64,000 bases of DNA, taken from Patescibacteria group bacterium (lineage in GTDB: Bacteria; Patescibacteriota; Microgenomatia; Daviesbacterales; UBA10151). The stretch spans positions 7,702 to 71,701 of the forward strand of contig CALRFD010000003.1 in the NCBI GenBank assembly GCA_943356485.1, written 5' to 3'. The position numbers were made by a program, and so were the translations under genes. Positions 7,771 through 57,720 of the stretch are shown piece after piece. Numbering within the stretch: the stretch's first letter is position 1; each line of letters opens with the position of its first letter. Below the pieces are notes generated by a model. The model was not told the DNA's origin. It made no database searches and was given only the letters and a program-made list of their open reading frames with translations.

Positions 7771-7785
7771 ATTTCAACCCAATTC

Positions 7786-7824
7786 CAACCCCAGGGGTTG
7801 ATTACCTTCAAACCCCGGGATTTT
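7786..7824. repeat. REP-like palindromes, family 1 (CAACCCCAGGGGTTG plus adjacent AAACCCCGGGATTT)
   Basis: Imperfect palindromes read directly. A third related copy sits at 17906-17924. Confidence 0.6.
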
Positions 7825-10634: not shown

Positions 10635-10779
10635 ACTTTAAGAATATCACATAATATGTAAGTGTTCTTTCAGGGTTTTGCGTAAGTCAAAATCGGTGGT
10701 AAACTCCACGACCAGCCTTTGGCTGGATGAGCCGGTGTAACTCCGGCAGCGACCGTATAGTCGGGATGAAAGGAAGAAT

Positions 10780-11700
10780 ATGAAAAAACTAATATCCTTT
10801 GGTCCGCTATTTGTTGCCTTAGCAGCTATAATTTGGAGTTTTGATGGTTTGCTAAGACGCAGTTTATACTCACTCCCACCTTCAGTAGTGGTTTTTTATG
10901 AGCATCTGATTGGTTTTGCCATTCTTTTATTATTTTTCCCAAAATGGTGGCCTGATTTAAAAAAACTGACTAAAAAAGAGTGGTTAGCCATCTCTTTAGT
11001 CGCGCTTTTTTCAGGAGCTTTGGGGACAATTTTTTATACTGCGGCTTTAGGAAGAGTAAATTATATTCAGTTTTCCGTTGTTGTTTTACTGCAACAGCTT
11101 CAGCCTATTTGGGCCATATCTGCCGCGGCCATCATACTTAAAGAACGAGTTAATAAGAGATTTATCCTTTGGGCAGGAATAGCTTTAGTTGCCGCATATT
11201 TTATAAACTTTAAAGACCTGAACGTAAATTTTCAAACAGGTACAGGGACAGCGGTAGCAGGAGGATTAGCTCTTCTGGCAGGAGTTTTATGGGGCTCCTC
11301 AACAGCGATTAGTAAGTATGTTTTAAACAAGGTTTCTTTTTTGACTGCCACAGCTTTGCGGTTTGCCCTGGCTCCTTTTTTTGCCCTGGGATTTATTTTC
11401 TCAATGGGGCAATCTGCCGCTATTTTTCAAATTACGCAAGCGCAAATATGGACACTTTTATTAATAGCTTTTTCAACCGGGATGGTAGCCTTAGCTATAT
11501 ATTATTATGGTTTAAAAAAGACTCCGGCCAGGATTACGACCCTTTGTGAGTTGGTTTGGCCAGCCTCCGCAGTCTTTATAGATTATGTCTATTTTCACCA
11601 AAGCTATTCAATAACCCAGATTTTAGGAATAGTAGTTTTGCTTTTTGTGCTTTATCAAGTAGCCTGGAAGAAAACAGAACTCATTGACAAAAGGGACTAA
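10780..11700 (+). CDS. EamA/DMT-family transporter (about 10 TM)
   Basis: Two repeated roughly 5-TM halves. Composition typical of EamA. Confidence 0.65.
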   Translation: MKKLISFGPLFVALAAIIWSFDGLLRRSLYSLPPSVVVFYEHLIGFAILLLFFPKWWPDLKKLTKKEWLAISLVALFSGALGTIFYTAALGRVNYIQFSVVVLLQQLQPIWAISAAAIILKERVNKRFILWAGIALVAAYFINFKDLNVNFQTGTGTAVAGGLALLAGVLWGSSTAISKYVLNKVSFLTATALRFALAPFFALGFIFSMGQSAAIFQITQAQIWTLLLIAFSTGMVALAIYYYGLKKTPARITTLCELVWPASAVFIDYVYFHQSYSITQILGIVVLLFVLYQVAWKKTELIDKRD

Positions 11701-17616: not shown

Positions 17617-17634
17617 GGGCCGGTAGCTCAGTGG
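17617..17634 (+). pseudogene. Duplicated 5' segment of tRNA-Lys (GGGCCGGTAGCTCAGTGG) with a similar leader; no 3' half follows
   Basis: 18 nt identical to 17793-17810. The preceding roughly 16 nt (GAACGTAAGTGAGAA) resemble the leader of the intact gene (GAACGAAGTGACGAAAT). Confidence 0.5.
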
Positions 17635-17658
17635 GTCATGAACCATATGGTTCATGAC
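17635..17658. repeat. Perfect 24-bp palindrome GTCATGAACCATATGGTTCATGAC
   Basis: Read directly. It immediately follows the tRNA fragment. Confidence 0.9.
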
Positions 17659-17792: not shown

Positions 17793-17864
17793 GGGCCGGT
17801 AGCTCAGTGGTAGAGCAATGGACTCTTAATCCATTTGTCGTGGGTTCGACCCCCACCCGGCTCA
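17793..17864 (+). tRNA. tRNA-Lys (anticodon CTT)
   Basis: Cloverleaf: acceptor GGGCCGG/CCGGCTC, D-arm GCTC-AGTGGTA-GAGC, anticodon stem ATGGA/TCCAT with loop CTCTTAA, T-arm GTGGG-TTCGACC-CCCAC. CCA is not encoded. Confidence 0.85.
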
Positions 17865-17886
17865 CAAGACCTATAGTTTAGCCTCA

Positions 17887-17928
17887 CTCCTGGGGTTCAA
17901 AGCTATTCAACCCCTGGGGTTGGGAGTT
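17887..17928. repeat. REP family 1 copy with an upstream half-copy (CTCCTGGGGTTCAAAGCTATTCAACCCCTGGGGTTGGGAG)
   Basis: Shares AAGCTATTYAACCCCTGGGGTT with 8560-8583. Confidence 0.6.
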
Positions 17929-17942
17929 TTTACTTAAAAGAC

Positions 17943-19220
17943 TTACTTTGCAGCAGCCATAACACGCTTCATAAAGTCATCTCTAAATTGAGGCATATCT
18001 TCTCTAGAAAACTTTCTTAAATCAGACCAGTCGATTTCTTCTAAAACCTCACGTTGGGGATCATTACTTAAATATGCATCACTAAATGCATCTGCTAATA
18101 TAGGCCTTAAAGGCATTCTAATACCCTTAGGTCTCAAAGCTTTAAGTATTTTCTGAGCCGTTTTACTAATTTTTTGGTCGTTTGTTTCACCGGAATCTCT
18201 TAAGTATTTACTAACTAAGCTCAAGGCTGTTGAATCTGGGTCATATTTTTCCGCAATATGAGTATTTGCAACATAAGGTTCTACAAGCATCCTTCTAAAT
18301 GTGTCATAATCATACTCCTGTAATTCTCGGTGGTGAAAATCACGGATTTCTGCTGCTGTTCTTATATCTTCCGGATGATCTTGCATATATGCCCGAATAA
18401 AAAATTCCATAAAATATTCGGAATCTCTTTGAGTAGCACAGTCTAAATCCACTATCGACAAGCCAGTCTTACCTCCATTATCACTTATCATCATATTTCC
18501 AGGATGTGAATTTGTGCCTAATCCTCTCATATCCTCAGACCATGAGTACCCTAAATCATGAAATATTCTTAAAACTCGTCCGCTCATCTTAGCAAGTTTG
18601 ATAAATACATCCAACATCCTATCAGCCTGAGATCTATCAAGATACCTAAAGGGTAGTGTAGTTTCAGCAGCATTTAGCATTCCCCCAAGCCTATCATCGC
18701 CGTCTACTTCATAAATTGCCGCACCGCATGGACTTCCATCAATCGGACAATTATAGTCTATTAAAGCTGCTGGTTTAACTCCATAATACAATTCCTTCTC
18801 TCTTAATGCTTTACCTAAATCTCCAATAATTCCCAGTTCGTATTCTGCAGCGTCCAAAAACATTCCACCTTTTACGTCTTGGCTGCCGACTGCAGTAGTA
18901 ATCAACTCACCATTTACTAAAGAAACGCCTTTAGCTCGGTACAACTTTCCATTAAACATGACTAGTGTTGAGCGAACTCCACTTGGGATTGTTCGTAAAT
19001 CAGACAAAGGTTCTGTCTGTACCTGTGGTAGTTCTCCCGGGAAATCTCGACGAAATATAGGTATGCCTAATTCTCCTCCAAATACATATTCTGCATTTGG
19101 ATCAGGCCTGACAACACAAGGTTCACCTCGAGGTATGAGTAGATGTGAATCTACCTCTTGATTATTCATTTCCTTTTTTCCGTTTGAATAAGGTTCAATA
19201 AAGGGTTCGCCTATTTCCAT
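17943..19220 (-). CDS. Hypothetical protein with protein-kinase-like/APH-like motifs (GTNSHPGNMMI catalytic-loop-like, SIVDLDCA DFG-like)
   Basis: Motif resemblance only. The position corresponding to the catalytic Asp (HGDxHPGN) is N/S here. Confidence 0.35.
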   Translation of the reverse strand: MEIGEPFIEPYSNGKKEMNNQEVDSHLLIPRGEPCVVRPDPNAEYVFGGELGIPIFRRDFPGELPQVQTEPLSDLRTIPSGVRSTLVMFNGKLYRAKGVSLVNGELITTAVGSQDVKGGMFLDAAEYELGIIGDLGKALREKELYYGVKPAALIDYNCPIDGSPCGAAIYEVDGDDRLGGMLNAAETTLPFRYLDRSQADRMLDVFIKLAKMSGRVLRIFHDLGYSWSEDMRGLGTNSHPGNMMISDNGGKTGLSIVDLDCATQRDSEYFMEFFIRAYMQDHPEDIRTAAEIRDFHHRELQEYDYDTFRRMLVEPYVANTHIAEKYDPDSTALSLVSKYLRDSGETNDQKISKTAQKILKALRPKGIRMPLRPILADAFSDAYLSNDPQREVLEEIDWSDLRKFSREDMPQFRDDFMKRVMAAAK

Positions 19221-19352
19221 GTCTTGAATTGTAACACAATAGTAATTTTAATACGAAATATAAATATCACCTTCCATTTGACCTAGGCAGGCACATTTAC
19301 TTTGAAGGTAAGCCCTATAGTTGATAGTTTCGTTCTTCTATGATAAACTGCT

Positions 19353-20003
19353 TTGATGAATCCAGAGAATAAAACCTTCAGTCAACTCGATAAAGCATCA
19401 GTTGTTAAACCTGCTGAATTGATTGAGACTCTGATACAATATTCTACTGGATCCTGGGGGATATCGGCAAGAGTAGTTGCTGGACTGATTTACAGTACGC
19501 CGTTACGTGAAGATGATTTAGTTATAATTGAATCCGCTGCAATAATTTGCGCAGAAAATCAATTAGTTAAGGTGTTACCGTACTTGGATAAGGTTGGTAG
19601 GGAGAGGTTTAATTCTGTAACGAACAATATAGTGCAATACTGCGCAGTGGGTCGGTTAGCGGAAAAGTTACTTCAAGAAGGGCAGTTTATAACAGAACCT
19701 GAAGATTTATCTAACGATATGCGAGGATTTCATATTGGAGATATACTTACTGTAGTAACCGGGCGATCATTATCACCCCGATCTACTGTTGGTGTCTATG
19801 ATATTCTTAATTTTTTAACAGGGAACGATATGGCTACTCATGATTTAGATAGTGTGCTAAAAGAGTGTCAGCCTCATTTGATTTTGCAACACCCTCAACT
19901 AAAAGAAGTGGATACCCAAGAGCTGGGTTCTGGTAATTGGCGCCAATGGTTGTCGGATCAGGCCAGGAGATATGGTTTAATATTACCTGTTAAGCCTATT
20001 TAG
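19353..20003 (+). CDS. Hypothetical protein
   Basis: 216-aa ORF with no recognised motifs. Confidence 0.35.
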   Translation: MMNPENKTFSQLDKASVVKPAELIETLIQYSTGSWGISARVVAGLIYSTPLREDDLVIIESAAIICAENQLVKVLPYLDKVGRERFNSVTNNIVQYCAVGRLAEKLLQEGQFITEPEDLSNDMRGFHIGDILTVVTGRSLSPRSTVGVYDILNFLTGNDMATHDLDSVLKECQPHLILQHPQLKEVDTQELGSGNWRQWLSDQARRYGLILPVKPI

Positions 20004-20029
20004 TTTAAAAAAGTTATACTTTAGTCCAA

Positions 20030-20866
20030 ATGAGTAAGCCAATATCAGTTATATTAATGCAAACCCGATCGTCTCGGGCGCTAAATGTCGGCTATCTTAA
20101 GAAGAATAAATTTATCCCCTGCCGGCTTAACTTAGGGGTAGAGAGACAAAACCATACTCTTTTAGCCACGATTGATTCCTTAAAACTACCGACAGCGCAG
20201 AAAATATTAAAAAAATTTAAGGCCAGGGAAATCTCTACAGTCAGTATTTTGCGGGAGGCCTTAGCTTGTCAATTGGGTTTTGCTTTATCTAAAGCCGGAG
20301 TTATTAATCACTTTGGAGATTGTTTTATCGGAGCAACTCATGTTAAGGAACAGGGAACTATAGTTACTAAGTATCAATATGAGAACGCAGAGGGTTTATG
20401 TAAAGGAGGGCTTTGGGTGATTGCCGACAGTATCTGTGTGGGTCGCAATTTAGGAAAAACTATGCAGTCGCTGCTCTCAAAATACCAACCGCAGGAAGTT
20501 TTGTTTATCTGTCCGATGGCCAGTCAATTGGGTATAAAAAACATCAGCCGGATTGTAGAAAAATATCATATTCCGCTAACCTTTATCGTTTGGGGGGCAG
20601 TCTTTGGGGTGGATAAGGATAATTTATATGATATGCCCTGGGGACATCAGGATACCAAGCCCTTGGATTTAAGGGATCAAAAAACTTTTATAAAGATGTA
20701 CGGATCAAATCTTTGTGTGGGGGGTGATTTTGGCAATGACTATTACTGTCCATCTGCGGCTGAAAAGCTTTATAGAGAGCAACTAAGAGAGCACAACATA
20801 ACCCCAAATATCCCCTCTGTTAAAGAAGTACTGGCTATCTATAAGGATGAGGAGTTATTAGCTTGA
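20030..20866 (+). CDS. Hypothetical protein (weak PRTase-like WVIADSICVGRN segment)
   Basis: 278-aa ORF. The motif resemblance is weak. Confidence 0.3.
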   Translation: MSKPISVILMQTRSSRALNVGYLKKNKFIPCRLNLGVERQNHTLLATIDSLKLPTAQKILKKFKAREISTVSILREALACQLGFALSKAGVINHFGDCFIGATHVKEQGTIVTKYQYENAEGLCKGGLWVIADSICVGRNLGKTMQSLLSKYQPQEVLFICPMASQLGIKNISRIVEKYHIPLTFIVWGAVFGVDKDNLYDMPWGHQDTKPLDLRDQKTFIKMYGSNLCVGGDFGNDYYCPSAAEKLYREQLREHNITPNIPSVKEVLAIYKDEELLA

Positions 20867-21528
20867 ATAATAGGGCTTTGTAATTTAGCTGCTTCATCAT
20901 CTTTTGTTTGCTCAGGTTTATGCTTCTCCGCTACTGTCGCAGAAAGCAGTAAGGCTACAGGAAAAATTTCTTCGAAACTGGCATCCTGATGGTTGGTATG
21001 TATCAGCAGAGATCTTATGGCTACTAGACTTTTTTCACCTGCCACGATATGAAAACAGGAATAGTATTCCAAAACATAACCCGGCCTTTCAGGAAGTAAA
21101 ATACCGTTAAATCTTGAGCCTGGCAAAGTTGTCTTGATAAGTCTTATTACTTCAGGTCCTCCATCTAAATCTACTGCTGTTGCCTGGTCAGGCTTTTCTA
21201 TCAGGGTTCTTGTTAAAAGAGCGGCTTTAAATATTGTATCCTCTTCAACTTCCAGCTTTTCCGCCAGATTGCTGACCCCCTCTTTTGCTAAATCTGAAAG
21301 CCTGTCTTTGAAACCTTCAATCTCAGGAGCTTTTTTAAACATCCACTCTTCAACAACCGGCCGGCCGCTTCTGATCAGGATGATCTGGTTTTTATAAACA
21401 GGACTTAAGTTTACCTCAGTTAGTACTAAACCTGCAGGAATATCTGACTCTGCTGAAAATTTGGCTTCGATTTTTTCCTTAAAGCCGGTTATTAAAGCCG
21501 ATTCCTCCTCTGCCAGTCGTTCAATCAT
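20839..21528 (-). CDS. Hypothetical protein
   Basis: 229-aa ORF. Confidence 0.35.
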   Translation of the reverse strand: MIERLAEEESALITGFKEKIEAKFSAESDIPAGLVLTEVNLSPVYKNQIILIRSGRPVVEEWMFKKAPEIEGFKDRLSDLAKEGVSNLAEKLEVEEDTIFKAALLTRTLIEKPDQATAVDLDGGPEVIRLIKTTLPGSRFNGILLPERPGYVLEYYSCFHIVAGEKSLVAIRSLLIHTNHQDASFEEIFPVALLLSATVAEKHKPEQTKDDEAAKLQSPIIQANNSSSL

Positions 21529-21607
21529 TTGTATCCTTGTTTATTTTATACAATAAATTGCAAAAAACAAGACTATCCTACTTGCTTCAACAACTCACCA
21601 GCTAGAC

Positions 21608-22810
21608 TTGTGTCTATACTCTATTTATGTTAAAGTTGCCTGCATGATTGAGCATATAAACTGGGCAGCAAAAGTTAATTCTGTAGCCGTATCCGCAGGG
21701 CGTGCACCGAAACTTATAGACCTTGAGGGAGACTATGAATATTATGCGGCTATTGGCTCTGTTGTTGAATTTGCTACAAGAGCTCAAAGCAGCTATTTAG
21801 AAAAAATGCGTGGACGGCTTTTGATGAAACTGCCGGGAGCCCAAAAAGCTTTGGTAAATGTCTTCACTGAAGCAGCTTTCTTGGATAAAAATGGGACATT
21901 AGATGGAATAACAGCAAAATTCCAGAAAGTAGCAGAGGTAAGTTTACCTGCAGTAATCGATAAATTAGCAGAGCAACCAGGAGAATCTAATCAGGAAGAT
22001 ATGCAGGAGGTGTCTAAAGCATTAAGAGAGGGTGATCAAATGCTCAGATTAAAATTCCTGCTGGATAGCCACAGGTACTTTACTACTAAGTTAGGGCTGA
22101 ATTCCTTTATAGGAGCTACATTTTTATCAAAGCTGGCTGCAAAATCCTTGCCTGGATATGCAAACCCTCAACCGGAGAATCTTACCAGGGAATTTATTGA
22201 AAAAATAGATAATTATGGTTTAGGGGAATATGTATATCTTGATTACTTCCTGACTGGAATAAGCGAAGTAGACAGGGTGGGGAAAGCATTTTCAACTGAA
22301 GCATTGTTTAGGCCAAGTATAAATGAAGTAACTTCAGTTTCTTACGAGCAACGCGAGGAAAATTGGAGAGAAGGTCAAGCAAATTATCGAACAAAAAGAG
22401 CTGAGATTGCTCAAAGACTTGGTGAATATATGGATGCAGGAGTCCTTGATTTGGATGCACTATTTAATAAAATTAATAGGGAATGGTTACGGCAAAATAC
22501 CAATGAAGCAGTTACTTTTATAACAGAAACCCTTAGCCATCCGATGACCAGGGCAATCATAGATTTTTCGAAAGACTCAAGATTTAGGTCTTCATTGGGC
22601 AAACCCTTACCAAACTTTTCAGCTATAGCCACTGCCATGATTAATGTGGCTGGATATAGAGAGAATAACACATCAGAATTAAGGGATACTATGCTTGGGC
22701 AGGTAACTGATAGGTTTATTACTTTTGTAATTGGGTTGTATGGCTTGGAAGTTGGAAGAAATAGATACAATCCTTCTTCGTCTGATTCAAATAAGAGCTT
22801 GTTAAACTAA
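21608..22810 (+). CDS. Hypothetical protein
   Basis: 400-aa ORF. Confidence 0.35.
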   Translation: MCLYSIYVKVACMIEHINWAAKVNSVAVSAGRAPKLIDLEGDYEYYAAIGSVVEFATRAQSSYLEKMRGRLLMKLPGAQKALVNVFTEAAFLDKNGTLDGITAKFQKVAEVSLPAVIDKLAEQPGESNQEDMQEVSKALREGDQMLRLKFLLDSHRYFTTKLGLNSFIGATFLSKLAAKSLPGYANPQPENLTREFIEKIDNYGLGEYVYLDYFLTGISEVDRVGKAFSTEALFRPSINEVTSVSYEQREENWREGQANYRTKRAEIAQRLGEYMDAGVLDLDALFNKINREWLRQNTNEAVTFITETLSHPMTRAIIDFSKDSRFRSSLGKPLPNFSAIATAMINVAGYRENNTSELRDTMLGQVTDRFITFVIGLYGLEVGRNRYNPSSSDSNKSLLN

Positions 22811-22889
22811 TTTTACTTCAAGATACTCTGGTTCAAGAATAGAAATCATTTAGGAATTATCATATAATACAAACTTAAGGCTTAAGTAT

Positions 22890-24206
22890 ATGCCAAAAAC
22901 AATAGCAATCATCGGCGGAGGGGGAAGGGAGTCAGCACTGGTTGATGCATATGCAAGGAGTAAATCCGTTGCGAGGATTTTGGTTTTCCCGGGAAATGAT
23001 CTGATGCAGGCAAATACAAAGAAGCCGGTCAAAACCTACCCTTATATTAAAACCACAGATATCTCTAAAATTGTTGCCGAGTGCAAAAAAGAAAAAGTCT
23101 TTTTGGTTGATGTCGCGCAGGATAATGCGGTTGCCTCCGGGGCAGTGGATGAACTTAGCAAAGCTGGAATAATTGCAGTCGGACCAACAAAGCTAGCCGG
23201 TCAGATTGAATGGGATAAGGCTTGGGCTAGGGAGTTTGGTAAAAGAATTGGTTTGTCTCAGCCGGCATTAAAAATCTGCCGCTCAAAAAAAGAAGCCGAA
23301 GATTTTTTAAAGATCCAGAAGGATCAGGCCTGGTTTATTAAAGCTGCCGGTTTGGCTGAAGGTAAAGGAGTATTGCCTGCAAGAAATAATAAGGAAGCTT
23401 TGGAGAAGGTAGCGCAGATGCAAAACTTTGGGGTTGCCGGAGAAGTTTTTTTAATTGAGTCGTGGTTGGAAGGAGAGGAGTTTTCTACCTATGTTTTTTG
23501 TGACGGGAAAAATTATCAGATGGTTGGCAGTGCTCAGGATCATAAACGGATAAATGATTATGACGAAGGGGCAAACACCGGAGGTATGGGTTGCAGTAGC
23601 CCCCCGTTGGTATTAAGCAGGGAGCTTTTAAAGCTAGTCCAAACAGAGATTTTAGATAAGGTCATAAAAGGTTTGAGTGAGGAGAAAAGACCGTATAAAG
23701 GAGTTTTGTATCTAGGGGGGATGGTAGTGAAGCAAGGTGACCAGTTAAAGCCATATGTTATAGAATTTAACGCCCGCTGGGGTGATCCGGAAGCGCAAGT
23801 GATAGTACCGGGTATAAAAAATGACTTATTTGATATCAGCATGGCTATATACAAAGGTGATATTAGTAAATTGAAGATTAAAACAGATGGAAAAGCCCGG
23901 GTGGTGGTAGCCGGAGTTTCAAAAGGCTATCCGCTTGATTATTCAAAGGTTAAGGATAAGCAGGTTTTTGGTTTAGATGAAGCCGGGAAAATTTCCGGAG
24001 TAAAGATTTATGGAGCCGGAATAAAGGTTATAGATAATAAGCATTATGCCTCTGGCGGCAGATTATTTTATATTGTCGGGGAAGGGAAGACAGTTATTGA
24101 GGCCAGACAAAAGGCATATGAGGCGATGTCTTTGATTTTCGTTGAAGGCAATAACCTGCATTACCGGACAGATATCGGCTGGAGAGACGTGGAGAGATTA
24201 AGATAA
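22890..24206 (+). CDS. purD: Phosphoribosylamine--glycine ligase (GAR synthetase)
   Basis: N-terminal IAIIGGGGRESAL. ATP-grasp organisation. 438 aa. Confidence 0.9.
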   Translation: MPKTIAIIGGGGRESALVDAYARSKSVARILVFPGNDLMQANTKKPVKTYPYIKTTDISKIVAECKKEKVFLVDVAQDNAVASGAVDELSKAGIIAVGPTKLAGQIEWDKAWAREFGKRIGLSQPALKICRSKKEAEDFLKIQKDQAWFIKAAGLAEGKGVLPARNNKEALEKVAQMQNFGVAGEVFLIESWLEGEEFSTYVFCDGKNYQMVGSAQDHKRINDYDEGANTGGMGCSSPPLVLSRELLKLVQTEILDKVIKGLSEEKRPYKGVLYLGGMVVKQGDQLKPYVIEFNARWGDPEAQVIVPGIKNDLFDISMAIYKGDISKLKIKTDGKARVVVAGVSKGYPLDYSKVKDKQVFGLDEAGKISGVKIYGAGIKVIDNKHYASGGRLFYIVGEGKTVIEARQKAYEAMSLIFVEGNNLHYRTDIGWRDVERLR

Positions 24207-24309
24207 GAGGTTTGGTACTTGTTTGATTATTTATACTTTTGGGAAGAGCTATCAGTTGTTGCGGGTGAAACCAGTAGATGTAAGTGAATTTTTTAAAAAT
24301 CCGTCTCCA

Positions 24310-24330
24310 TTTTTTGCTCTGTTAAATAAG
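24310..24330 (+). repeat. 21-bp direct repeat TTTTTTGCTCTGTTAAATAAG, copy 1
   Basis: Perfect match to 30181-30201. Confidence 0.9.
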
Positions 24331-24348
24331 ATTGTAGTATTTCAAAAG

Positions 24349-24400
24349 GTCTAATCTCCCCAGGTGACCTATATTCTACACCCCCCAGGTGAGCTTATTT
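24349..24400 (+). repeat. REP-like family 2 copy (TCTAATCTCCCCAGGTGACCTATATTCTACACCCCCCAGGTGAGCTTA)
   Basis: Matches 31362-31412 over 48 bp with 3 mismatches. The core is shared with 41864-41898 and, inverted, with 41138-41170. Confidence 0.7.
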
Positions 24401-24432
24401 GCGGATTTAAGTTATATGCCATATACTTTTAA

Positions 24433-24732
24433 ATGAGCATGAATCCAGAAGCAACCTCACATTCTAATCCTGAACACCCAAAAGAATTAGCGTTAAGTCC
24501 TCAGGAAAAAAACAGGTTAATCGCTCATTTGGGAAGAGTGTATTCCAGAAGATATGATATTCAGGTTCTACCATCCCATGAACGTGGGGTTTGGGCTACT
24601 GGACTTGATCCAGAAACAAATATTGAGTTAGAGAAATATATGACTGGTCAAAGAGATAGCCTGGATGATTTGCCACCCGATGCTTTATCCCAAAAAAAAT
24701 TCTTTATGATGCAGAGTCAGCCCAGGGGATGA
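24433..24732 (+). CDS. N-terminal segment of the metallopeptidase/VWA protein, separated from the next ORF by a -1 frame change at an A8 tract
   Basis: The ORF ends 4 nt into the start of the 666-aa ORF. The downstream ORF's frame is open back to 24669, so one extra A in the 24692-24699 run fuses them: ...SQKK|ILYDAESAQGMSMDQ... Confidence 0.5.
   Translation: MSMNPEATSHSNPEHPKELALSPQEKNRLIAHLGRVYSRRYDIQVLPSHERGVWATGLDPETNIELEKYMTGQRDSLDDLPPDALSQKKFFMMQSQPRG
24693..24699 (+). other. A_AAA_AAA heptamer within an A8 run: candidate -1 programmed frameshift site or homopolymer indel
   Basis: In the ORF1 frame the codons are caA AAA AAA ttc. A -1 slip reads AAA AAA ATT CTT TAT and enters the HExxH-VWA ORF frame. 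Confidence 0.45.
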
Positions 24733-26729
24733 GTATGGATCAAATCTCTACTATTCTTCATCACGAAGCTGGTCATGCTAAATATACTGATTTCCGTTTA
24801 ATGATGGAGGGGCAAAAACAAGCTAAAGATGAAGGCTACCTGCCAACAAGTTTTTGGTTGATGTTTGAAGGAATAGAAGATCCAAGAGTCAATAGTTTAG
24901 AAGGCGAAGAGTCTCCGGCAATAGACCGCCAGATTAGAACTAACCAGGGGAAGGATCTGGAAGAAAGAATAACTGAAACACCCCTATCAAGCAGGCCGTT
25001 ATTATTACAATTTGCTTATAATTCTTCCCACTATTGGCTACACGGAAAAGGTATACCGGAGCTAGAGGATACTGATGTTGGCAGATTAGGTGAAGTTGCA
25101 AAGCCGTTACTGGAACAGTACTTTTTAAATACTGATGTAGACATAAGAAGGTTATTACAAAAACAAATTTGGGATATTGCAAAGGAGCTTGAAAAGAAAG
25201 ATATAGAAGATGAAGAAAAGCGTCAGATGGCTGAACGAAAACAAAGATCAAAACAGCAACAGGAAGAAGGACAATCAGGTGAGGGTCAATCCGGAACTCC
25301 CAATATCCCAGGAGGAGGAGAGCCGCGTCAGAATGCAGCTTCTGCGCAAGGAAGTAAACGTTTTATAGATCGTTTAAAGCAAGCAATCCTTGGTCGGCCA
25401 AATCAAAGTACATCTAACAACTCGGACAGTGGCTTTGAAAGTGACTCCTCGGAGGTGGGCGGCGAAGCAGGTCATCAAATTAGTAAGCCCTCCTTTGAAA
25501 AAAAACCAGAGAGGTTTGATCTGTCAAAACTCTCAGATGAAGAGCTCCAAGATATTAAAGATGCAATAGACCAGCTACCCCCTGAAGAACGCGCAGAACT
25601 TACTAAAGTAGCCAGAATAACTGTAGACGAAATACAAAAAGCAGCCCTGGAGGAAGAGCTGGGAAAAACAATGAAACTGGAGAGAAATAAAAAAACAGGT
25701 GAATATGAGATCAGACCGCAAACTGTAGATGAAAAAGCGCAAAAGCAGGCGGAGCATGATTATAAGGAGGCTTTATCGGAGGTTGAAGCAGAGGAGCAGG
25801 CTGAGTATGAAAGAGAAGAAGCAGAAAGAAGACATCAGGAAGGGTTACTTAAGCAATTGGAACAAGCCAGAAAAGAAAAAATAGAAATGGAAAAAGCAGG
25901 TTTTAATGAGGACGAGCAGGATAAATACTTACTTTACCAGTCCTTAGAAGATGCAATGTATTCCTATGTCAGAAATTTTAAACAAGCCATCGGAAGAATC
26001 ATTCCAAGAAGAAAAGAGCCAATATATGAAGGCGGTTATTTTAACGGGTCTAAGCTTGACAGAAGGGAGTTAATCCGCAAAGCTCCTTTGGGTGATGAGC
26101 AGTTTCATATGAGACAGGTAGAAAAACCAACCGGTGAACCCAGATTATTTATTGGGTTACTCATTGATAATAGCGGCTCAATGCAGGGAAGAAAAATGGA
26201 GGAGGCAAGAAAAGCTACAATCTTTTTTGCCAGGGTTTGTAAGGACATGGGTATTCCATTTATGGCAACTGCATTTGGAGATAAGGCAGAGGTTATAAAG
26301 GAATTCAGACAGGATTTTGATGACAGGTCTCAAAGAATAAAGCCTAAATTGATTGAAGCAACCGAAGCTCTTGGCGGAAGTACTAATCTTCATGCAGGAA
26401 TTAAGATGACTATTGAAGCTATGAATGAGCAAAGAAGAAGGCTTAGGGATTCTCATGGTTTAATCCTGGTTATTACAGACGGTGAAGCAAATAAGGGGCT
26501 TAGCGGAGATGCTCTAGGCGATTATATAAAAGAAAATCAAGGCAGACTCACCTTTAAAGGATTTGGACTATCAGCTGGGGAGCAGGAGAGAGCTAAGATT
26601 CAAACTTATTTAAACCTTTATTTTGGTGAAAGTAACTGCGCATATCCTGAAAACTTTGAGGATTTACCAGACGAAGCATTTAGACTGCTTCGGATTAACC
26701 TGATTCAGCTCCAAAGGTTCTTGTCATAA
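24729..26729 (+). CDS. HExxH metallopeptidase-like N-domain, acidic/coiled-coil linker and C-terminal von Willebrand factor A (MIDAS) domain protein (DUF2201/CoxE-like class)
   Basis: ILHHEAGHAKY (HExxH). EK/Q-rich low-complexity middle. VWA with MIDAS residues DNSGS...GGST...ITDGEAN. Confidence 0.7.
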   Translation: MSMDQISTILHHEAGHAKYTDFRLMMEGQKQAKDEGYLPTSFWLMFEGIEDPRVNSLEGEESPAIDRQIRTNQGKDLEERITETPLSSRPLLLQFAYNSSHYWLHGKGIPELEDTDVGRLGEVAKPLLEQYFLNTDVDIRRLLQKQIWDIAKELEKKDIEDEEKRQMAERKQRSKQQQEEGQSGEGQSGTPNIPGGGEPRQNAASAQGSKRFIDRLKQAILGRPNQSTSNNSDSGFESDSSEVGGEAGHQISKPSFEKKPERFDLSKLSDEELQDIKDAIDQLPPEERAELTKVARITVDEIQKAALEEELGKTMKLERNKKTGEYEIRPQTVDEKAQKQAEHDYKEALSEVEAEEQAEYEREEAERRHQEGLLKQLEQARKEKIEMEKAGFNEDEQDKYLLYQSLEDAMYSYVRNFKQAIGRIIPRRKEPIYEGGYFNGSKLDRRELIRKAPLGDEQFHMRQVEKPTGEPRLFIGLLIDNSGSMQGRKMEEARKATIFFARVCKDMGIPFMATAFGDKAEVIKEFRQDFDDRSQRIKPKLIEATEALGGSTNLHAGIKMTIEAMNEQRRRLRDSHGLILVITDGEANKGLSGDALGDYIKENQGRLTFKGFGLSAGEQERAKIQTYLNLYFGESNCAYPENFEDLPDEAFRLLRINLIQLQRFLS

Positions 26730-26804
26730 TTTTAACCTTAATGAAAGCCGCTAAAGCGTATTGAGAGATTGATTTATATTCAATAAATCTGGTACGTTAA
26801 ATAT

Positions 26805-29800
26805 ATGGCTGATAATAGCGGGGTAGAAAGAAATACCTATGAAGCAAGAAATTTATTGGCTCCCGGCAATCCAATTTCTCAACTTGTAGAAATACGGGAT
26901 TTAGGTACAGATAGATTTAGAGAGCAGTTTAAAGGTGAAGTTGTAGATGTTAAAAAAATAGGAGAAGTAGTTGCAATTTTAGAAAAGCAAAGTGATAAAT
27001 ATGAATTAGCTGTTTTCAATAAACAAGCTACACCGATAAGAGTTCCTCTTGATCCTACTGTAGTAGAAATTCTTGCTTCTTCCAGAGGAGATTATATAGA
27101 TGTTAGTTCTAAGCCTGATGTTTCTACAGAAAAATTGCAGAATATTTTAGGAAGGATGGGGTTTCACCTAAGAGATTTTAACCCGGTTGTAGAAACTTGG
27201 AGTGAATTATTCTTCAATTGTCGTTCGATTGGCTTCCCCGACCTTTATGTCAGGAGTCGTGTTTTAAATAGGGGAGCTAATATTAGTATACCAATGGGTG
27301 ATTGGAATCTGGAAGTAATGGAGGATCAAAATAAGCAGGCAACATTTGTTTTAGGAGTAGGTGGTAGCTATTTTGAAATGTACCCAAATGGACCGTTCAA
27401 AAAGCTTCCTCTTTCAGGGGAGGAGTTTGCGAAGCTAGAAGAGTTGGATAAAGATTTACCAGGAGATCTACAAATTGTGAAGGGTTATAATTTATTTCAT
27501 ATTACAAATAATACAGGACTCCAACAAGGATACTCTGGTTTGAGTCCTACTCAGGATCCCTCTAATCCTGGTATTTTATATTTTATAAATTCAGGTCAAG
27601 TTTACAGTTTGGATACTAAGGGTGTCCTGGATAGAACAACTTACCCTGTTTCTGAATCTCAGATTAAGATACAAGATCCTCAGGAGTTAGCGATTGATCC
27701 AAATGGGAATTTTTTAATTATTCGATCTTCTGATAATAAGCTGTCTATTGTCGATAAGGAAACAGGAGATATTGCCGAAGTTGTTGAAGATGTTAAAGGA
27801 TTTTTAACCGTTGATAAATTGGGGGGTATTGTTTACCTTGATACTCAAGATAAACTACGCGAAGTTCAGGCTAATTTTCAAACTATTCCTCCTGGAGGCA
27901 GTAAATTGCTACTAGAGAAAAAAGAGGCGCAGTTAAGAGAACAACAGGAAAGGTTTGCTAATTTAGAACTGGGAAAAGTAACGGGAAAAAGTCGGGCCGC
28001 AATATCAGAAGTAGATGTGGCTAATACTCTAAGAGAAACTATTTCAAGACAGGTTCTTGAACCTATCAATTCTGCAACAAATCCAGTAGTTTTAGAAGAT
28101 ATTTTAGATAGGCTGCAGGGATTAAAAGTAGATCCTGCCAATCAGGCATATCAGGAAGTTATTGATGAGTTTATTACTCAAGCAAGAGGTAAACTGAGTG
28201 GAATTAGAACTGCAGAATTTAGTACCCAACTTGACTCTTATAAACTGGCTTTAGATGAAGTTAAAAGCGTAGGTGATACTATTGGTTTGGATGAACAATT
28301 TGCCAGGATTTTAGAATTAAGGCAAAAACTTGATGTAGTTGATCCTCAACAAAGAAGAGAGGTTGAACAAAGATTGCGTACTCTTCAAACCCGGAAAGAC
28401 ACTTTGAATAATCAGTATCAGGGTGAGTTAATAGCAGCTGTAAACGAAGCTATACCTCAGATTGAACAACTGATAGAAGAAACCGGTTCGCCTCAGGAGC
28501 TTGCTTATTTTTCAACTTCAGTGCAAGCGCAACAGTTTGAAATGATGCTTGCCAATATTAGAGATCCACAAGTAAGAAAGGAGTTGCGTGATAAATATAG
28601 CGCAATGAGAACAAAGCAAAGAGGAAAATTAGAAGAGGGAAACAGACAGCTGGAAGAGCAGGACAGACAAAGATGGGCGCAAGTGGTAGATGAAGCCCGT
28701 GAGGATTTAGCTTCCTTGAGAGAACAGATTGAGCAATTATCAGACTCTGGTGAAGTAGACCGCTTTGGTAGAAATCCACTAGTAACAGCTTGGAGAGCTA
28801 AGCTTTTTGCCCTCCCTCCGGAATTAAGGGAAATAGAAGAAAAGAGATTAGAGATTATCCTAGGCGCCCGTAAAAAGGACATGGAGCATCGAAAAGAGTT
28901 AGGAGCGGTTGGTGAAACAGGGGAACTTAAGTTTGGAAATGCTACTTTTCCAATATTTAAAGAACCTCCAAGAATTTGGCAACCCAAGCTTTTACCAAGG
29001 CCAGGCGGTTTTGCGCAGTGGGCAGATTTAATATTTGAGGATTCTCAGGGAAAAATTTGGAGGCCGGCTAAGGATCACGATCTTATTGTCAGCACTGATT
29101 TAAATGATGAAAGGACCAGGATATTAATTGAGCAATATCATAAACAGGCGGATGAATATTTTAGAGGTATTAAAAGAAGAGTTCCTGAATTTGATGAGCA
29201 CTGGAGAATTACAGACTATAATATGGAAAAATTAGAAGAGGTGGTTGAAGCCTTAAATTTACAACTTGCCAACCATAGGGGAATTTTGATTATGCAGGGT
29301 GAGGCTGGTACAGGAAAAAATGTATTAGTGGATATGTTGGCTAATCTGTCTGATCGGGAAGTTATAACTGTTGCCTGTAATGAAAACAGTACGAAGGAAG
29401 ATCTAACATACGATTTTGATTATGATCCAAAAACGGGCACTGTCAGATGGCCTTCACGGCTTTTAGAAGGTTTACAAACTCCTGGCACAATTATCCTTTT
29501 TGATGAAATTAATGCTCTTAAACCAGGCATTTCGAAAATGTTAAATTCACTTTTCGATTATAGGAGAAGATTACTCTTTACCTCAGGAGGAACAGCAAAA
29601 GAAATTATTACTGATCCTACGGTTCTTTTCCTGGGTACTATGAATCCACAGAATTATGGTGGAGTAAACAGGTTATCCCCTGAAGTAAAATCCAGAGCCA
29701 GAGTAGTTGATATTGACTATCCGCCATTTGAGGTGGCAAGAAATGGGAGAACATATTACAGGAGTGATGAAGCAGAAATGTTAGCGGCTTATATGGATGG

Positions 29801-30167
29801 CCTCTCTGATTTTAAGCAGCCAGAAGTTAGGCAAATCTGGCATTACTTAATAAATAGAGATACGACAAATGGAGCAGACAGGATGCTATCGGGTAATCCT
29901 CAGATAGAAACAGATGTAAGGCGAGTATATGATGTCATAAGAGTGGCTAATAGACTTAGGGAGATGTATACCGCTTACCAAGTTGGTGATTCAAATGAAC
30001 CAATGGATTTTCCAACATCCTTGCGGGAAGTAACTGATATTGTTATGGAAATGAACCACCGCCAGGGTGTCAAACCAATGATTAAAAGGGTTATTGTTCC
30101 AAAGATAGATGATAGAAGGCAGAAAAAATTAGTTGAGCAAACCATAGATGCAGTTCTACCGGCTTAG
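26805..30167 (+). CDS. Giant MoxR-like AAA+ ATPase (AAA_5-type) with a roughly 800-aa N-terminal beta-rich plus coiled-coil extension
   Basis: Walker A GEAGTGKN, Walker B IILFDEIN, sensor-1 LGTMNPQN, MoxR-like LSPEVKSRARVV. Residues about 100-330 are beta-strand-like repeats and about 360-800 are heptad-rich. Confidence 0.7.
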   Translation: MADNSGVERNTYEARNLLAPGNPISQLVEIRDLGTDRFREQFKGEVVDVKKIGEVVAILEKQSDKYELAVFNKQATPIRVPLDPTVVEILASSRGDYIDVSSKPDVSTEKLQNILGRMGFHLRDFNPVVETWSELFFNCRSIGFPDLYVRSRVLNRGANISIPMGDWNLEVMEDQNKQATFVLGVGGSYFEMYPNGPFKKLPLSGEEFAKLEELDKDLPGDLQIVKGYNLFHITNNTGLQQGYSGLSPTQDPSNPGILYFINSGQVYSLDTKGVLDRTTYPVSESQIKIQDPQELAIDPNGNFLIIRSSDNKLSIVDKETGDIAEVVEDVKGFLTVDKLGGIVYLDTQDKLREVQANFQTIPPGGSKLLLEKKEAQLREQQERFANLELGKVTGKSRAAISEVDVANTLRETISRQVLEPINSATNPVVLEDILDRLQGLKVDPANQAYQEVIDEFITQARGKLSGIRTAEFSTQLDSYKLALDEVKSVGDTIGLDEQFARILELRQKLDVVDPQQRREVEQRLRTLQTRKDTLNNQYQGELIAAVNEAIPQIEQLIEETGSPQELAYFSTSVQAQQFEMMLANIRDPQVRKELRDKYSAMRTKQRGKLEEGNRQLEEQDRQRWAQVVDEAREDLASLREQIEQLSDSGEVDRFGRNPLVTAWRAKLFALPPELREIEEKRLEIILGARKKDMEHRKELGAVGETGELKFGNATFPIFKEPPRIWQPKLLPRPGGFAQWADLIFEDSQGKIWRPAKDHDLIVSTDLNDERTRILIEQYHKQADEYFRGIKRRVPEFDEHWRITDYNMEKLEEVVEALNLQLANHRGILIMQGEAGTGKNVLVDMLANLSDREVITVACNENSTKEDLTYDFDYDPKTGTVRWPSRLLEGLQTPGTIILFDEINALKPGISKMLNSLFDYRRRLLFTSGGTAKEIITDPTVLFLGTMNPQNYGGVNRLSPEVKSRARVVDIDYPPFEVARNGRTYYRSDEAEMLAAYMDGLSDFKQPEVRQIWHYLINRDTTNGADRMLSGNPQIETDVRRVYDVIRVANRLREMYTAYQVGDSNEPMDFPTSLREVTDIVMEMNHRQGVKPMIKRVIVPKIDDRRQKKLVEQTIDAVLPA

Positions 30168-30478
30168 TCAAGCAAATCTGTTTTTTGCTCTGTTAAATAA
30201 GGCCTTAGTTCCTCGAGGGGTAATCTGGAAAGGGTGGCACAAATCTGGTCGATAGAAACAATTTTGTCCAGAATGAAAACCTTATCATCTAATCTGGTAG
30301 GATCATCGTCTGTTAATACTCTGTTATGATCAACAACGCTCTGAAGGAATTCAACTGTGCCAACAGTTATTACATATGGCTTATCGCCGCGCACTAAGTG
30401 GATATCCTGGGCTATCACCGCTAGGTTTTGATCCTTGATTTCACCTATTAAATAACAAGACTGATCTGCTTCTTTCAT
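30164..30478 (-). CDS. Hypothetical protein (104 aa), translationally coupled to the upstream 286-aa ORF
   Basis: ATGA start/stop overlap with 30475-31335. Confidence 0.4.
   Translation of the reverse strand: MKEADQSCYLIGEIKDQNLAVIAQDIHLVRGDKPYVITVGTVEFLQSVVDHNRVLTDDDPTRLDDKVFILDKIVSIDQICATLSRLPLEELRPYLTEQKTDLLD
30181..30201 (+). repeat. 21-bp direct repeat TTTTTTGCTCTGTTAAATAAG, copy 2 (encodes the C-terminus YLTEQK of the minus-strand 104-aa ORF)
   Basis: Perfect match to 24310-24330. Confidence 0.9.
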
Positions 30479-31335
30479 AATCTGCTTTTTCCTTTGATAA
30501 TAGACCTGGGTTGGGTTGTCAAAACTGCTAACACCTCATCCTGTTTCGCTTTATCACAAACTGCGATCCGTATTATAACAGGAGTGTCGTTAACTCTGCC
30601 AAATTCTATAAAATAGACTCGTTGTCCGGCAACATTACCCAGATAGCAGATCGGTCTGTTTGTAATTTGATTTTTTATTGTTTTAATAAAGCTTGATTTT
30701 CTTTTAATAAAATCAGGTAGATAGGTATAAAGTAAAGTATCTGCATGTTTGTTTTGCTCCCTGGTTAATTGGGCTGCGACTTGCGCTAGCTTGCCCCTTA
30801 CAATGCTGCCATAATAAAATTTCTGTCCTTCTGTATCAGATAATGTAACCATTGCCAAAGGGATCTCCTCTGTTTTTTTTAACCATGGCAAATCCATATT
30901 ACTTATCAAAAGCCTTTGATCAGACATTCTGGTTTCCTTAAAACCTGAAGGCAGGCCTTTTTTAAACTCAGCCCGGCTTCTCTTTTTGGATAAATCATCA
31001 GGTTCAGCAACTTTTTGAACGGATTCCTCAACTGTAGGTTGAATTGATGGTTTCGGGGCTACCGGCTTTTCAATTACTGTGACTGGCACGCTTTCGTTTT
31101 TTTGCTGACTACTCTCCCGGGTATCTTCAACCAGTCTACCGGCTAATGATCTCTCAAGTGCCCCTATTGCGAGTCTTCTTTCAGCTAACTCGCGTACCCT
31201 TTTTTGTTCGGAGGTTTCCTTTATAACCTGCTTTGGTTGCCTTGGCTCATCCGGCATCTTGTCTAAAATGGCTCTTATAGTAAAAGATCCTGCGCTAGGT
31301 TTTCCTGGATTCCCGCCTTCTCTCTGCTCACTCAT
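30475..31335 (-). CDS. Hypothetical protein (286 aa) with a Pro/Glu/Lys-rich N-terminal half and a globular C-terminal half
   Basis: ORF with clear low-complexity and globular partitions. No motifs recognised. Confidence 0.4.
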   Translation of the reverse strand: MSEQREGGNPGKPSAGSFTIRAILDKMPDEPRQPKQVIKETSEQKRVRELAERRLAIGALERSLAGRLVEDTRESSQQKNESVPVTVIEKPVAPKPSIQPTVEESVQKVAEPDDLSKKRSRAEFKKGLPSGFKETRMSDQRLLISNMDLPWLKKTEEIPLAMVTLSDTEGQKFYYGSIVRGKLAQVAAQLTREQNKHADTLLYTYLPDFIKRKSSFIKTIKNQITNRPICYLGNVAGQRVYFIEFGRVNDTPVIIRIAVCDKAKQDEVLAVLTTQPRSIIKGKSRL

Positions 31336-31361
31336 AAAAATATTATAGCATCTTTTATACA

Positions 31362-31412
31362 GGGATCTAATCTCCCTAGGTGTCCTAAATTCTACACCCC
31401 CCAGGTGAGCTT
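31362..31412 (+). repeat. REP-like family 2 copy
   Basis: GGGATCTAATCTCCCTAGGTGTCCTAAATTCTACACCCCCCAGGTGAGCTTA. Confidence 0.7.
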
Positions 31413-31587
31413 ACAGGTGAGATTAGTCTTGCAAATGCCTTGCGGCCTCACAGGGCGATTTAGAACTTTTATACTGCCACAAAAGTTTTAGTCCAATACT
31501 CTGTATAGGCAGGCCACATAGGTAACACTTATGCCTAAACGTATATATGGCCTGGCTACATATAAAACAGTAAATTTTTGGAACGTC

Positions 31588-31596
31588 TGGTATAAT
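31588..31596 (+). promoter_or_regulatory. Extended -10 element TGGTATAAT upstream of the 31614 ORF
   Basis: TGnTATAAT match 18 nt before the start codon. Confidence 0.3.
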
Positions 31597-31613
31597 TAGC
31601 CAAATAATATATT

Positions 31614-32570
31614 ATGGTTGAGCACAAAGATCCGCAATTTACAGAACCAAATTTAGAAAAACTTCTAGGTTCAAATTCAACCTTGAAGCTGGCATGTTTT
31701 ATAGAAGATTATGTAAGTAATACAGGGCGAGACCTGTTAACGAGTGGTAAATATACATATCCTTCTAAGGATGTTCACCCAATATATCGGCTTCAAAAAT
31801 GGGCGGAATCAGTTGATAGAAAAATAGTTGCCTATTCCGCTACTTTTAAACCTAAAGACGAGGTTTCAGTTATAGCAATGGTTAATGAGATGGTAAAAGC
31901 AGGAAAGCTTAGTCAAAATTTACCTTTTCTGAGTGATCGGTATCCTCCTGGTTTATTTCCCGCTGATCATTATCGTTGGGAGCTAATTAGTAGTCTATTT
32001 GGTATTGATACAACAATTCTTGCAAAAAGGCGGCCAACATATCCAGGGACGAATAATACATTAGTAGAGTTAAATCTCCCAAGCTATTATAAAATGGAGA
32101 ATACGGAAACGACTGCGGATGTAATGCTTAAACTCATAAGAGATGCGTTATCTGGCAAAGGTTCTGTTGTAGAGCTAAGAGATGAATATCCTAGTATACA
32201 AAGGACTCATATAGCTGCACCTACAGCTTTAGAAAATGTTTTTGCAATTATCCGCACTACTCATTCTAATATAGATATAGATAGATCTGGGTTGCGAACA
32301 GGATATCCTTCAATAGAGAGTCTGGACCTACATTTAGGAGTAGCCTTTCTTGCAGCGGTAAGACCTTTAACCGCTGAGCAATATGAAAAATATGTTCCGA
32401 GCGGAATAAAAAGAGACGAATCAGCGACAACATTTGACTTTCGTGATCATCAGTTAATGCGAGATAAAGAAAGAAGACAATCAGCAAGAGCTAGGCAAGA
32501 AAAATTTGATTATTTAATTAAAAAGTGGTTGGATGAATTTCCCAATGGAAGCCTTCCTCCTGTGATTTGA
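31614..32570 (+). CDS. Hypothetical protein (318 aa)
   Basis: ORF lying between a REP copy and tRNA-Arg. Confidence 0.4.
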   Translation: MVEHKDPQFTEPNLEKLLGSNSTLKLACFIEDYVSNTGRDLLTSGKYTYPSKDVHPIYRLQKWAESVDRKIVAYSATFKPKDEVSVIAMVNEMVKAGKLSQNLPFLSDRYPPGLFPADHYRWELISSLFGIDTTILAKRRPTYPGTNNTLVELNLPSYYKMENTETTADVMLKLIRDALSGKGSVVELRDEYPSIQRTHIAAPTALENVFAIIRTTHSNIDIDRSGLRTGYPSIESLDLHLGVAFLAAVRPLTAEQYEKYVPSGIKRDESATTFDFRDHQLMRDKERRQSARARQEKFDYLIKKWLDEFPNGSLPPVI

Positions 32571-32641
32571 TGGAGCATCTTTAGTGAAACTAAAAGGATG
32601 GGCTATTTTTTAAGTAAGCATCAGAGGAAACTGAAATTTGC

Positions 32642-32715
32642 GCCCCTGGAGGGACTTGAACCCCCAAAACCTCTTCGTCCGAAGCGAAGCGCTCTATCCA
32701 TTGAGCTACAGGGGC
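32642..32715 (-). tRNA. tRNA-Arg (anticodon TCG)
   Basis: Reverse complement reads GCCCCTGTAGCTCAATGGATAGAGCGCTTCGCTTCGGACGAAGAGG...GGTTCAAGTCCCTCCAGGGGCG. Acceptor GCCCCTG/CAGGGGC. Anticodon stem CTTCG/CGAAG with loop CTTCGGA. Confidence 0.8.
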
Positions 32716-41082: not shown

Positions 41083-41137
41083 TAAGTAGTTATTTTAACT
41101 CTTTTCAGCCTTAAATAAAATCCACCAAACTCTTACT

Positions 41138-41170
41138 CACCTGGGGGGTGTATTAGCTTGACACCTAGGG
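41138..41170. repeat. REP-like family 2 copy, inverted orientation
   Basis: Reverse complement CCCTAGGTGTCAAGCTAATACACCCCCCAGGTG. Confidence 0.65.
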
Positions 41171-41192
41171 AATTTTGTTATATTTTTAATAT

Positions 41193-41863: not shown

Positions 41864-41898
41864 CCCTAGGTGACCTATATTCTACACCCCCCAGGTGT
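41864..41898 (+). repeat. REP-like family 2 copy
   Basis: CCCTAGGTGACCTATATTCTACACCCCCCAGGTG. Confidence 0.65.
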
Positions 41899-57662: not shown

Positions 57663-57720
57663 GGGGTGGGTGGGCTGATTATAATCCTGAGCAGGGCCGA
57701 AGGACTTAGTTTGTACTCAG
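57663..57720 (+). repeat. Dispersed repeat, copy R4
   Basis: GGGGGTGGGTGGGCTGATTATAATCCTGAGCAGGGCCGAAGGACTTAGTTTGTACTCAG. Confidence 0.8.

Follow-up and report, generated by a model that had tools for sequence, protein, structure and literature searches.

In genomic islands bounded by attachment (att) sites, and in their integrase-less remnants, the cis-mobilizable elements (CIMEs), direct repeats flank a block of genes that has inserted into the 3' end of a gene. Transposons also leave a direct repeat of their target on both sides of the inserted DNA. A further kind of system is built from repetitive extragenic palindromic (REP) elements, REP doublets forming hairpins (REPINs) and REP-associated tyrosine transposases (RAYTs), for which Nunvar 2010 and Bertels and Rainey 2011 are reportedly the sources. 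Here we analyse a locus that partly resembles each of them. It lies in a stretch of 64,000 nt (the window hereafter, meaning this whole stretch) of a Patescibacteria group bacterium (assembly GCA_943356485.1, contig CALRFD010000003.1, positions 7,702 to 71,701), in which the perfect 21-bp direct repeat TTTTTTGCTCTGTTAAATAAG, at 24310–24330 and 30181–30201 of the + strand, brackets a gene pair encoding a protein with a VWA domain and an AAA+ ATPase. Our verdict is that the repeat is a real scar left by a rearrangement, of a general kind already known, in a lineage that has been little studied. As for its origin, we tentatively favour, at somewhat less than an even chance, that a block of DNA joined into the 3' end of a gene for a 104-aa protein and left 21 bp on both sides.

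As in att-flanked islands and CIMEs, the repeats at this locus are perfect, short and direct, one of them is the 3' end of a gene that remains intact, and the interval in which the block sits is not the same from one relative to the next. Unlike those islands, the block comes without an integrase, an excisionase or a relic of either, its cargo is conserved in the lineage and host-like in composition, neither an empty site nor a circle was seen, and the target is a small protein-coding gene instead of a tRNA gene. The direct repeat of a target on both sides of inserted DNA is shared with transposon target-site duplications, whereas 21 bp exceeds their usual length and the block has no terminal inverted repeats and no transposase. 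With REP/REPIN-RAYT systems, the window has in common a homolog of the Y1 (HUH) transposases that is flanked by inverted copies of a short element also found as solo intergenic copies, and the same architecture is present in a second organism. In contrast to these systems, the protein of the window scores under the cut-off that NCBIfam sets for RAYT, the element consists of a bipartite direct motif that has a 4–6 bp hairpin instead of a strong palindrome, and the host is an uncultivated, Microgenomates-like bacterium of the candidate phyla radiation (CPR). Finally, the cargo recalls the MoxR AAA+/VWA pairs, in which an AAA_5 ATPase gene adjoins a co-oriented VWA-domain gene and the two are kept as a pair; here, however, both proteins are much larger, with an N-terminal region of ~800 aa in the ATPase, the VWA protein also carries an HExxH motif and a coiled coil, and the VWA gene comes first.

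The 21-bp repeat is neither a chance match nor an assembly artefact

The 21-mer has exactly two copies in the window. No third copy was found there with up to three mismatches permitted, and none in another 8 kb of this genome that adjoin the window on the right, which brings the scope to ~72 kb. With three mismatches allowed, 0.03 matches are expected by chance, and two or more copies were seen in 0 of 100 shuffles. A census of all exact repeats in the AT-rich window placed the chance ceiling at ~16 nt and returned, at 17 nt or longer, just four other families besides the 21-mer. The repeat is exactly 21 bp long, the outer bases differing on both sides (a/g before, a/g after), and anchored extension found no significant homology beyond its edges, with scores of 0 on the left and 2 on the right. 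These scores led us to reject a longer duplication that has decayed around the 21-mer, an idea against which the sharp edges and the lack of flanking homology argue. A 12/13 match farther to the left (p ~0.02) is separated from the 21-mers by unrelated sequence, and the AAA+ homologs have no C-terminal extension resembling the translation of the left spacer.

An accidental match or an assembly artefact might be suspected, given that the 21-mer is AT-rich with a run of T and that the smallest k of some assemblers is 21. However, the window matches the ENA contig ERZ27280317 k141_195454 over 20165–40478 with a single 1-nt difference, and both junctions, each with its own unique flanks, are 100% identical in separately built Logan contigs of run ERR5863124, one junction being covered by L141 (18429–24444) and the other by L002 (28013–31402). 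Because the repeat is far beyond the chance ceiling and its junctions recur in independent assemblies, chance and artefact are effectively excluded.

The right copy is the native one

Read as its reverse complement, (C)CT TAT TTA ACA GAG CAA AAA A, the right copy encodes P93–K99 (PYLTEQK) of the 104-aa open reading frame (ORF), in which five residues (TDLLD) then precede the stop. The left copy lies in non-coding DNA, 104 nt past the purD stop and 103 nt before the start of the VWA gene. An exhaustive HMMER search for relatives of the 104-aa protein returned 58 clusters of ~100-aa proteins, and an alignment of 39 family members has the consensus C terminus LxPYLTEQ followed by variable tails. 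The 286-aa protein encoded next to it has only two homologs among 5.8 billion proteins, and at both of their loci a downstream ~100-aa gene ends in (R/E)PYL(I/V)EQK plus a variable tail of 4–5 residues; at one of them (L004), the DNA at the position of the motif is identical to the 21-mer at 18 of 21 nt. These alignments indicate that the right copy is native, selected coding sequence, and since it encodes the conserved C-terminal motif of the 104-aa family, the left copy is the derived one.

Both copies had been reported by the original prediction, which was made from the DNA letters alone, and both match exactly (21/21) at the positions given there. Its statement that no other copy exists is borne out over ~72 kb, with three mismatches allowed within the window, and its placement of the left copy in non-coding DNA after purD is equally sound, the copy lying in the 226-nt spacer between purD and the VWA gene. 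It had also taken the right copy to encode the last residues (YLTEQK) of the 104-aa ORF; the copy does lie within the end of that ORF, but TDLLD still follows.

Several observations concern the 104-aa/286-aa pair itself, which occupies 30164–31335 in the window, the two homologs of the 286-aa protein being found at L004 4520–6102 and L142 116–1725. Among the three members known, the 286-aa protein of the window is without the ~130 N-terminal residues found in the other two, and its N terminus, MSEQR, echoes the C-terminal motif TEQK of the 104-aa protein. No Pfam, NCBIfam or PDB match points to a function for the pair, and the AlphaFold models were too poor for a fold search (predicted local distance difference test scores of 46.5 and 55.6). 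The C terminus of the 286-aa protein may be RelE/HigB-like.

In relatives, the VWA/AAA+ pair occurs apart from the 104/286 pair

For the AAA+ protein, 36 homologs with identities of 42–77% were found, and their few named sources are Microgenomates or Daviesbacteria. In 3/3 contexts inspected (L006, L007 and L008), the VWA gene lies directly upstream of the AAA+ gene and is co-oriented with it, while the neighbours of the module differ each time and neither purD nor the 104/286 pair is present. At L004, the 104/286 homologs adjoin an aldo-keto reductase gene and the VWA/AAA+ module is missing. Because the two gene pairs are unlinked in relatives, they have independent histories.

The closest relative by purD (L137, 78% identical) has tRNA-Lys(CTT), purD and tRNA-Arg(TCG) in the same order and orientation as the window, and its tRNA-Lys is 100% identical. 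Between these anchors (63–10997 in L137 and 17793–32715 in the window) every protein gene differs. Since all protein genes between conserved anchors differ from those of L137, both inter-anchor intervals, tRNA-Lys to purD and purD to tRNA-Arg, are turnover hot spots, and it is in the second of them, variable between relatives, that the block is found. An island integrated at tRNA-Arg was rejected, as no partial copy of the tRNA occurs anywhere to its left. A phage origin was also rejected, both the 21-mer and the REP-like pattern described below being absent from viral contigs and the PADLOC defence models returning nothing meaningful.

The sequence that follows purD has been rearranged in comparison with the closest relative, so the 226-nt spacer must contain a junction. 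This would suit an explanation in which the break joining the purD flank to the REP/VWA block was repaired with a stretch copied from the end of the 104-aa gene 5.9 kb away, as templated filler, and in which the module was never inserted at the right site. The copy is short, perfect and sharp-edged, the 19 nt after it have no identifiable source, and the explanation is as economical as an insertion. However, it has no direct evidence on its side and gives no account of why the copied piece should be exactly a conserved gene end. Bacterial examples of such templated insertions are poorly documented, and we consider such a repair quite unlikely here.

A possible insertion into the end of the 104-aa gene

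From the repeat, its native copy, the reconstructed reading frame and the unlinked gene pairs we infer both a direction and a mechanism for the event, under the tentatively favoured insertion, as follows. Before the event, the order would have been purD -> <- 104 <- 286, with a 104-aa ORF that ended in ...PYLTEQKMETDF* at 86 nt from the purD stop. A block made of a REP-like element and the VWA/MoxR-type AAA+ operon would then have entered at the 21-bp stretch, either through one crossover with another molecule on which these 21 bp were also present or through a join, staggered or replicative, in which the target was copied. The 21 bp would thereby have been duplicated to both sides, with the copies 5.87 kb apart. 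In the gene-proximal copy, the essential C-terminal motif would have stayed in frame and acquired a different tail of five residues (TDLLD*), the stop of which overlaps that of the AAA+ gene, while the distal copy would be a neutral scar. Because the copies show 0/21 mismatches and sharp edges, the event would be recent; it would also be one-off, and the block would not be an autonomous mobile element. The repeat would have no function beyond that of a possible deletion substrate. In agreement with this scheme, removal of 24331–30201 yields an intact 104-aa ORF that ends in ...PYLTEQKMETDF*, with a 5-residue tail within the range of the family.

A number of findings weigh against the insertion. 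No recombinase, integrase or transposase is encoded in or beside 24310–30201, where Pfam and NCBIfam scans of all ORFs from purD to tRNA-Arg found only the VWA and AAA_5 domains. No terminal inverted repeats were seen by inspection at the block ends (ATTGTAG... / ...AAATCTG). The GC content is flat, 0.37–0.42 inside and outside the block with no composition shift, and we rejected a foreign composition of the block on that ground. Transposon target duplications usually measure 2–14 bp, and 21 bp is long for one. The reconstructed ORF gives mild support, in that the left flank would provide a nearby stop by chance about half the time, and a staggered pair of REP-like sister elements at 24350 and 31366 permits other histories. 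Besides, the VWA/AAA+ pair, with the 36 homologs noted above, is an operon conserved throughout the lineage and not typical island cargo. No flanking direct repeat of at least 13 nt surrounds the module in the three relatives L006, L007 and L008. Finally, no empty site was found in reachable data, in which the nearest relatives (purD 78% and 70% identical; 286-aa protein 52% identical) are non-syntenic.

Of the conceivable routes, site-specific integration would have happened without its integrase, and transposition without a transposase and inverted repeats; a single homologous crossover would need a circular donor on which the 21 bp also occur; and a replicative template switch may have been at work. 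A dif/Xer site was rejected by inspection only, the 21-mer being without an ATAA-N6-TTAT core and the right copy lying in coding sequence. The 21-mer shares TGTTAAAT with the XerD arm of the E. coli dif site.

The original prediction had proposed a site-specific insertion. The geometry speaks for it, with a native copy at a gene end, a perfect and sharp-edged duplicate and an intact reconstructed ORF, whereas a recombinase, terminal inverted repeats, a composition shift and an empty site are all missing. It had further held that the two forward genes were inserted as a unit, for which the unlinked pairs of the relatives and the restorable ORF are in favour, and against which stand the conservation of the operon in the lineage and the missing mobility machinery. 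The alignment to related genomes that it had suggested met non-syntenic relatives and no single-copy site; and the module without a flanking duplication, which it had named as counting against an insertion, is seen in three relatives, though with different neighbours.

The VWA/AAA+ module and the two 21-mer sites

In the window the VWA gene is split into ORFs of 99 and 666 aa, while the sibling ENA contig has one 763-aa ORF. The source of the frameshift is TTT at 24684–24686, where the otherwise identical ENA contig has TTTT, and the shorter run in the window record probably reflects an error in assembling the homopolymer. At its other end, the module meets the 104-aa gene head-on: the two genes are convergent, and their stops share the 4 nt 30164–30167 (TTAG both ways). 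Because the stop codons overlap and leave no room for a terminator, the transcripts of the two genes must collide.

The left copy could also be a functional duplicate kept by selection, acting in a + strand RNA perfectly complementary over 21 nt to the 3' end of the 286/104 mRNA, by which the purD 3' region or the leader of the VWA operon would be linked to the convergent genes, or as a shared protein-binding site. Its perfect identity in a non-coding spacer would fit this, as would the placement of each copy shortly past the end of a + strand gene (at a distance of 104 nt from purD and of 14 nt from the AAA+ gene) and the collision of the transcripts of genes that overlap at their stops. Against it, no terminator-like site or relevant promoter was found at either 21-mer copy, for which reason a terminator or promoter explanation of the 21-mer was rejected, no Rfam motif was found in 24150–24480, and no relative shows such a copy beside its module. 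An Rfam scan of the whole window detected only a flavin mononucleotide (FMN) riboswitch, three tRNAs and a DUF3800-II RNA. A selected function of the left copy is, in our estimate, highly improbable.

REP-like elements and a RAYT-like gene

A second repeat had been overlooked in the original prediction. It is a 48-nt element with two copies that are 94% identical (Table 1), arranged on the left as [21-mer]-19 nt-[48-mer] and on the right as [21-mer]-104,286 genes-[48-mer]. The right copy has an 8-bp terminal inverted repeat, CTAATCTC...GAGATTAG, reaching ~31429. The family core can be written CCCYAGGTG-N12-16-TACACCCCCCAGGTG, and the 21-mer is not a member of this REP-like family. These two are the only solo copies in ~72 kb, and both are at this locus.

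Further REP-like copies, inverted relative to each other, bracket a gene for a 221-aa protein that is related to Y1 transposases. Its Pfam match to Y1_Tnp (36.8 bits, cut-off 23) is above the gathering score, and its best NCBIfam match, REP_Tyr_transpos (3.2e-12, 46.5 bits), is below the cut-off of 80; no relative was found in the PDB by sequence. In L135, a JGI metagenome contig, a homolog with 63.5% identity is flanked in the same inverted manner, and the architecture is present at L135 5527–6284 and at L133 4–737. The bipartite motif was found in eight JGI metagenome contigs of 39–44% GC, and solo copies in five other metagenome contigs, while the pattern is absent from viral contigs. The hairpin of the element has a stem of only 4–6 bp (TACACC/GGTGTA), with fold z-scores of −0.2 to −1.6. 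Judged by the criteria for REP and RAYT summarised in PMC5581495, the 221-aa gene and the REP-like copies would, on their sequence features, make up a REP/RAYT-like system, with a very weak hairpin and with copies counted over ~72 kb. Among the matches listed by a full-text literature search on RAYT in the CPR or Patescibacteria, none contained 'RAYT'.

The staggered layout of the two repeats raises the possibility of duplication followed by deletion, in which a local duplication, for instance by unequal crossing-over between the two directly repeated REP-like elements, copied a segment with the end of the 104-aa gene and later deletions left 21 nt of it beside the REP-like element. In favour of such a history, the REP-like copies are 94% identical and share subfamily-specific flanks, the leftward extension from the 48-mer is borderline (46/3000 shuffles), and each 21-mer has, 29–30 nt to its left, one side of a 12/13 match whose offset is consistent (53/3000 shuffles). 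On the other hand, two or three events, if not more, would have been needed, each with its ends in exactly the right place, and the 30 nt immediately to the left of both 21-mers are unrelated. The 19-nt spacer, compared with 31336–31365 upstream of the 286-aa gene, is not significantly similar alone and reaches p ~0.015 as an extension from the 48-mer; if it is homologous, it is ~30% diverged, as against 0/21 changes in the non-coding 21-mer. We consider duplication and deletion unlikely.

A rearrangement linked to the REP/RAYT-like system itself can also be envisaged, in which the Y1 transposase cut single-stranded DNA beside the REP-like element at 24350 and rejoined it to a break at the end of the 104-aa gene, so that the block was moved or captured. 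The RAYT-like gene with its inverted REP-like copies is 11 kb away, 19 nt separate the left 21-mer from a REP-like copy, and the locus is bracketed by two solo REP-like copies, the only ones in 72 kb. However, no REP-like site or half-site is present at the right 21-mer junction, the hairpins are weak by their z-scores, and two solo copies within 7 kb are not unlikely by chance in 64 kb. Y1 enzymes of the HUH type, such as those of IS200/IS605 and the RAYTs, are not known to duplicate their target. Hence a transposase-driven origin of this sort seems to us very unlikely.

A broader speculation would be that in this CPR lineage the RAYT-like transposase and the REP-like sites, or an unrecognised mechanism that needs no integrase, move operons into gene ends, with the 21-bp repeat as the signature; we give it very little credence. 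There is an equally slim chance that the REP-like-bracketed ~7-kb unit 24350–31413 is a mobilisable or amplifiable cassette, and we think it just as improbable that an 18-nt duplicate of tRNA-Lys at 17617 is a second scar of the same process.

Features of the window

The coordinates of the features at and around the repeat are collected in Table 1.

Table 1. Features at the repeat locus and at the RAYT-like gene (positions in the window).
Feature	Position	Strand	Remarks
purD, conserved left anchor	22890..24206	+	
Left (derived) 21-mer copy, purD-VWA spacer	24310..24330	+	junction in independent contig L141
Spacer, 19 nt, between left 21-mer and REP-like element	24331..24349	+	
REP-like left copy, core CCCCAGGTG-N16-TACACCCCCCAGGTG	24350..24397	+	
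Gene for HExxH, coiled-coil and VWA protein	24433..26729	+	VWA_2 match 2.9e-10
1120-aa AAA+ ATPase gene (AAA_5 / MoxR-dynein type)	26805..30167	+	AAA_5 match 1.5e-21
104-aa gene, unannotated ~100-aa family, C-terminal LxPYLTEQ	30164..30478	-	
Right (native) 21-mer copy	30181..30201	+	minus strand encodes P93-K99 of the 104-aa protein
286-aa gene, ATGA overlap with the 104-aa gene	30475..31335	-	two homologs known
REP-like right copy, between divergent 286-aa and 318-aa genes	31366..31413	+	
tRNA-Arg(TCG), conserved right anchor of the variable interval	32640..32715	-	
REP-like copy, 5' side of the RAYT-like gene, inverted	41136..41175	-	
RAYT-like Y1 (HUH) transposase gene, 221 aa	41193..41858	+	HFH at residue 86, YIHLNP at 146
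REP-like copy, just 3' of the RAYT-like gene	41864..41898	+	

Other repeats were observed elsewhere in the window. The first 18 nt of tRNA-Lys(CTT), 17793–17810, are exactly repeated at 17617–17634, 176 nt upstream of the gene, and a perfect 24-nt palindrome, GTCATGAACCATATGGTTCATGAC, follows directly at 17635–17658. This 18-nt copy may be a tRNA fragment, or else another scar from the duplication of a gene end. The 17-nt exact inverted repeat CCAACCCCAGGGGTTGA, nearly palindromic and intergenic, is found at 7785–7801 and at 17907–17923, the latter copy being just downstream of tRNA-Lys. Intergenic repeats at 56035–56091, 56838–56894, 57677–57720 and 58432–58531, with exact matches of 35–57 nt, contain the promoter-like box GATTATAAT; this family lies around a DUF3800 gene and the DUF3800-II RNA (Rfam, 58345–58414). 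The FMN riboswitch (10662–10781, 89.5 bits) is immediately upstream of an ORF at 10780–11700.

Implications for Patescibacteria

The repeat alone changes no functional annotation. If the insertion that we tentatively favour is true, the locus would record a datable operon relocation in a genome of the Patescibacteria/CPR, bacteria in which genome rearrangement and mobile-element biology are poorly charted, and it would mean that target duplication can keep a small conserved gene intact when DNA inserts into its final codons. The pairs of 21-bp and 48-nt repeats, both direct, predict that deletion or amplification variants may occur in populations. The by-product most worth reuse is the REP-like/RAYT-like system, found in two Microgenomates-like organisms.

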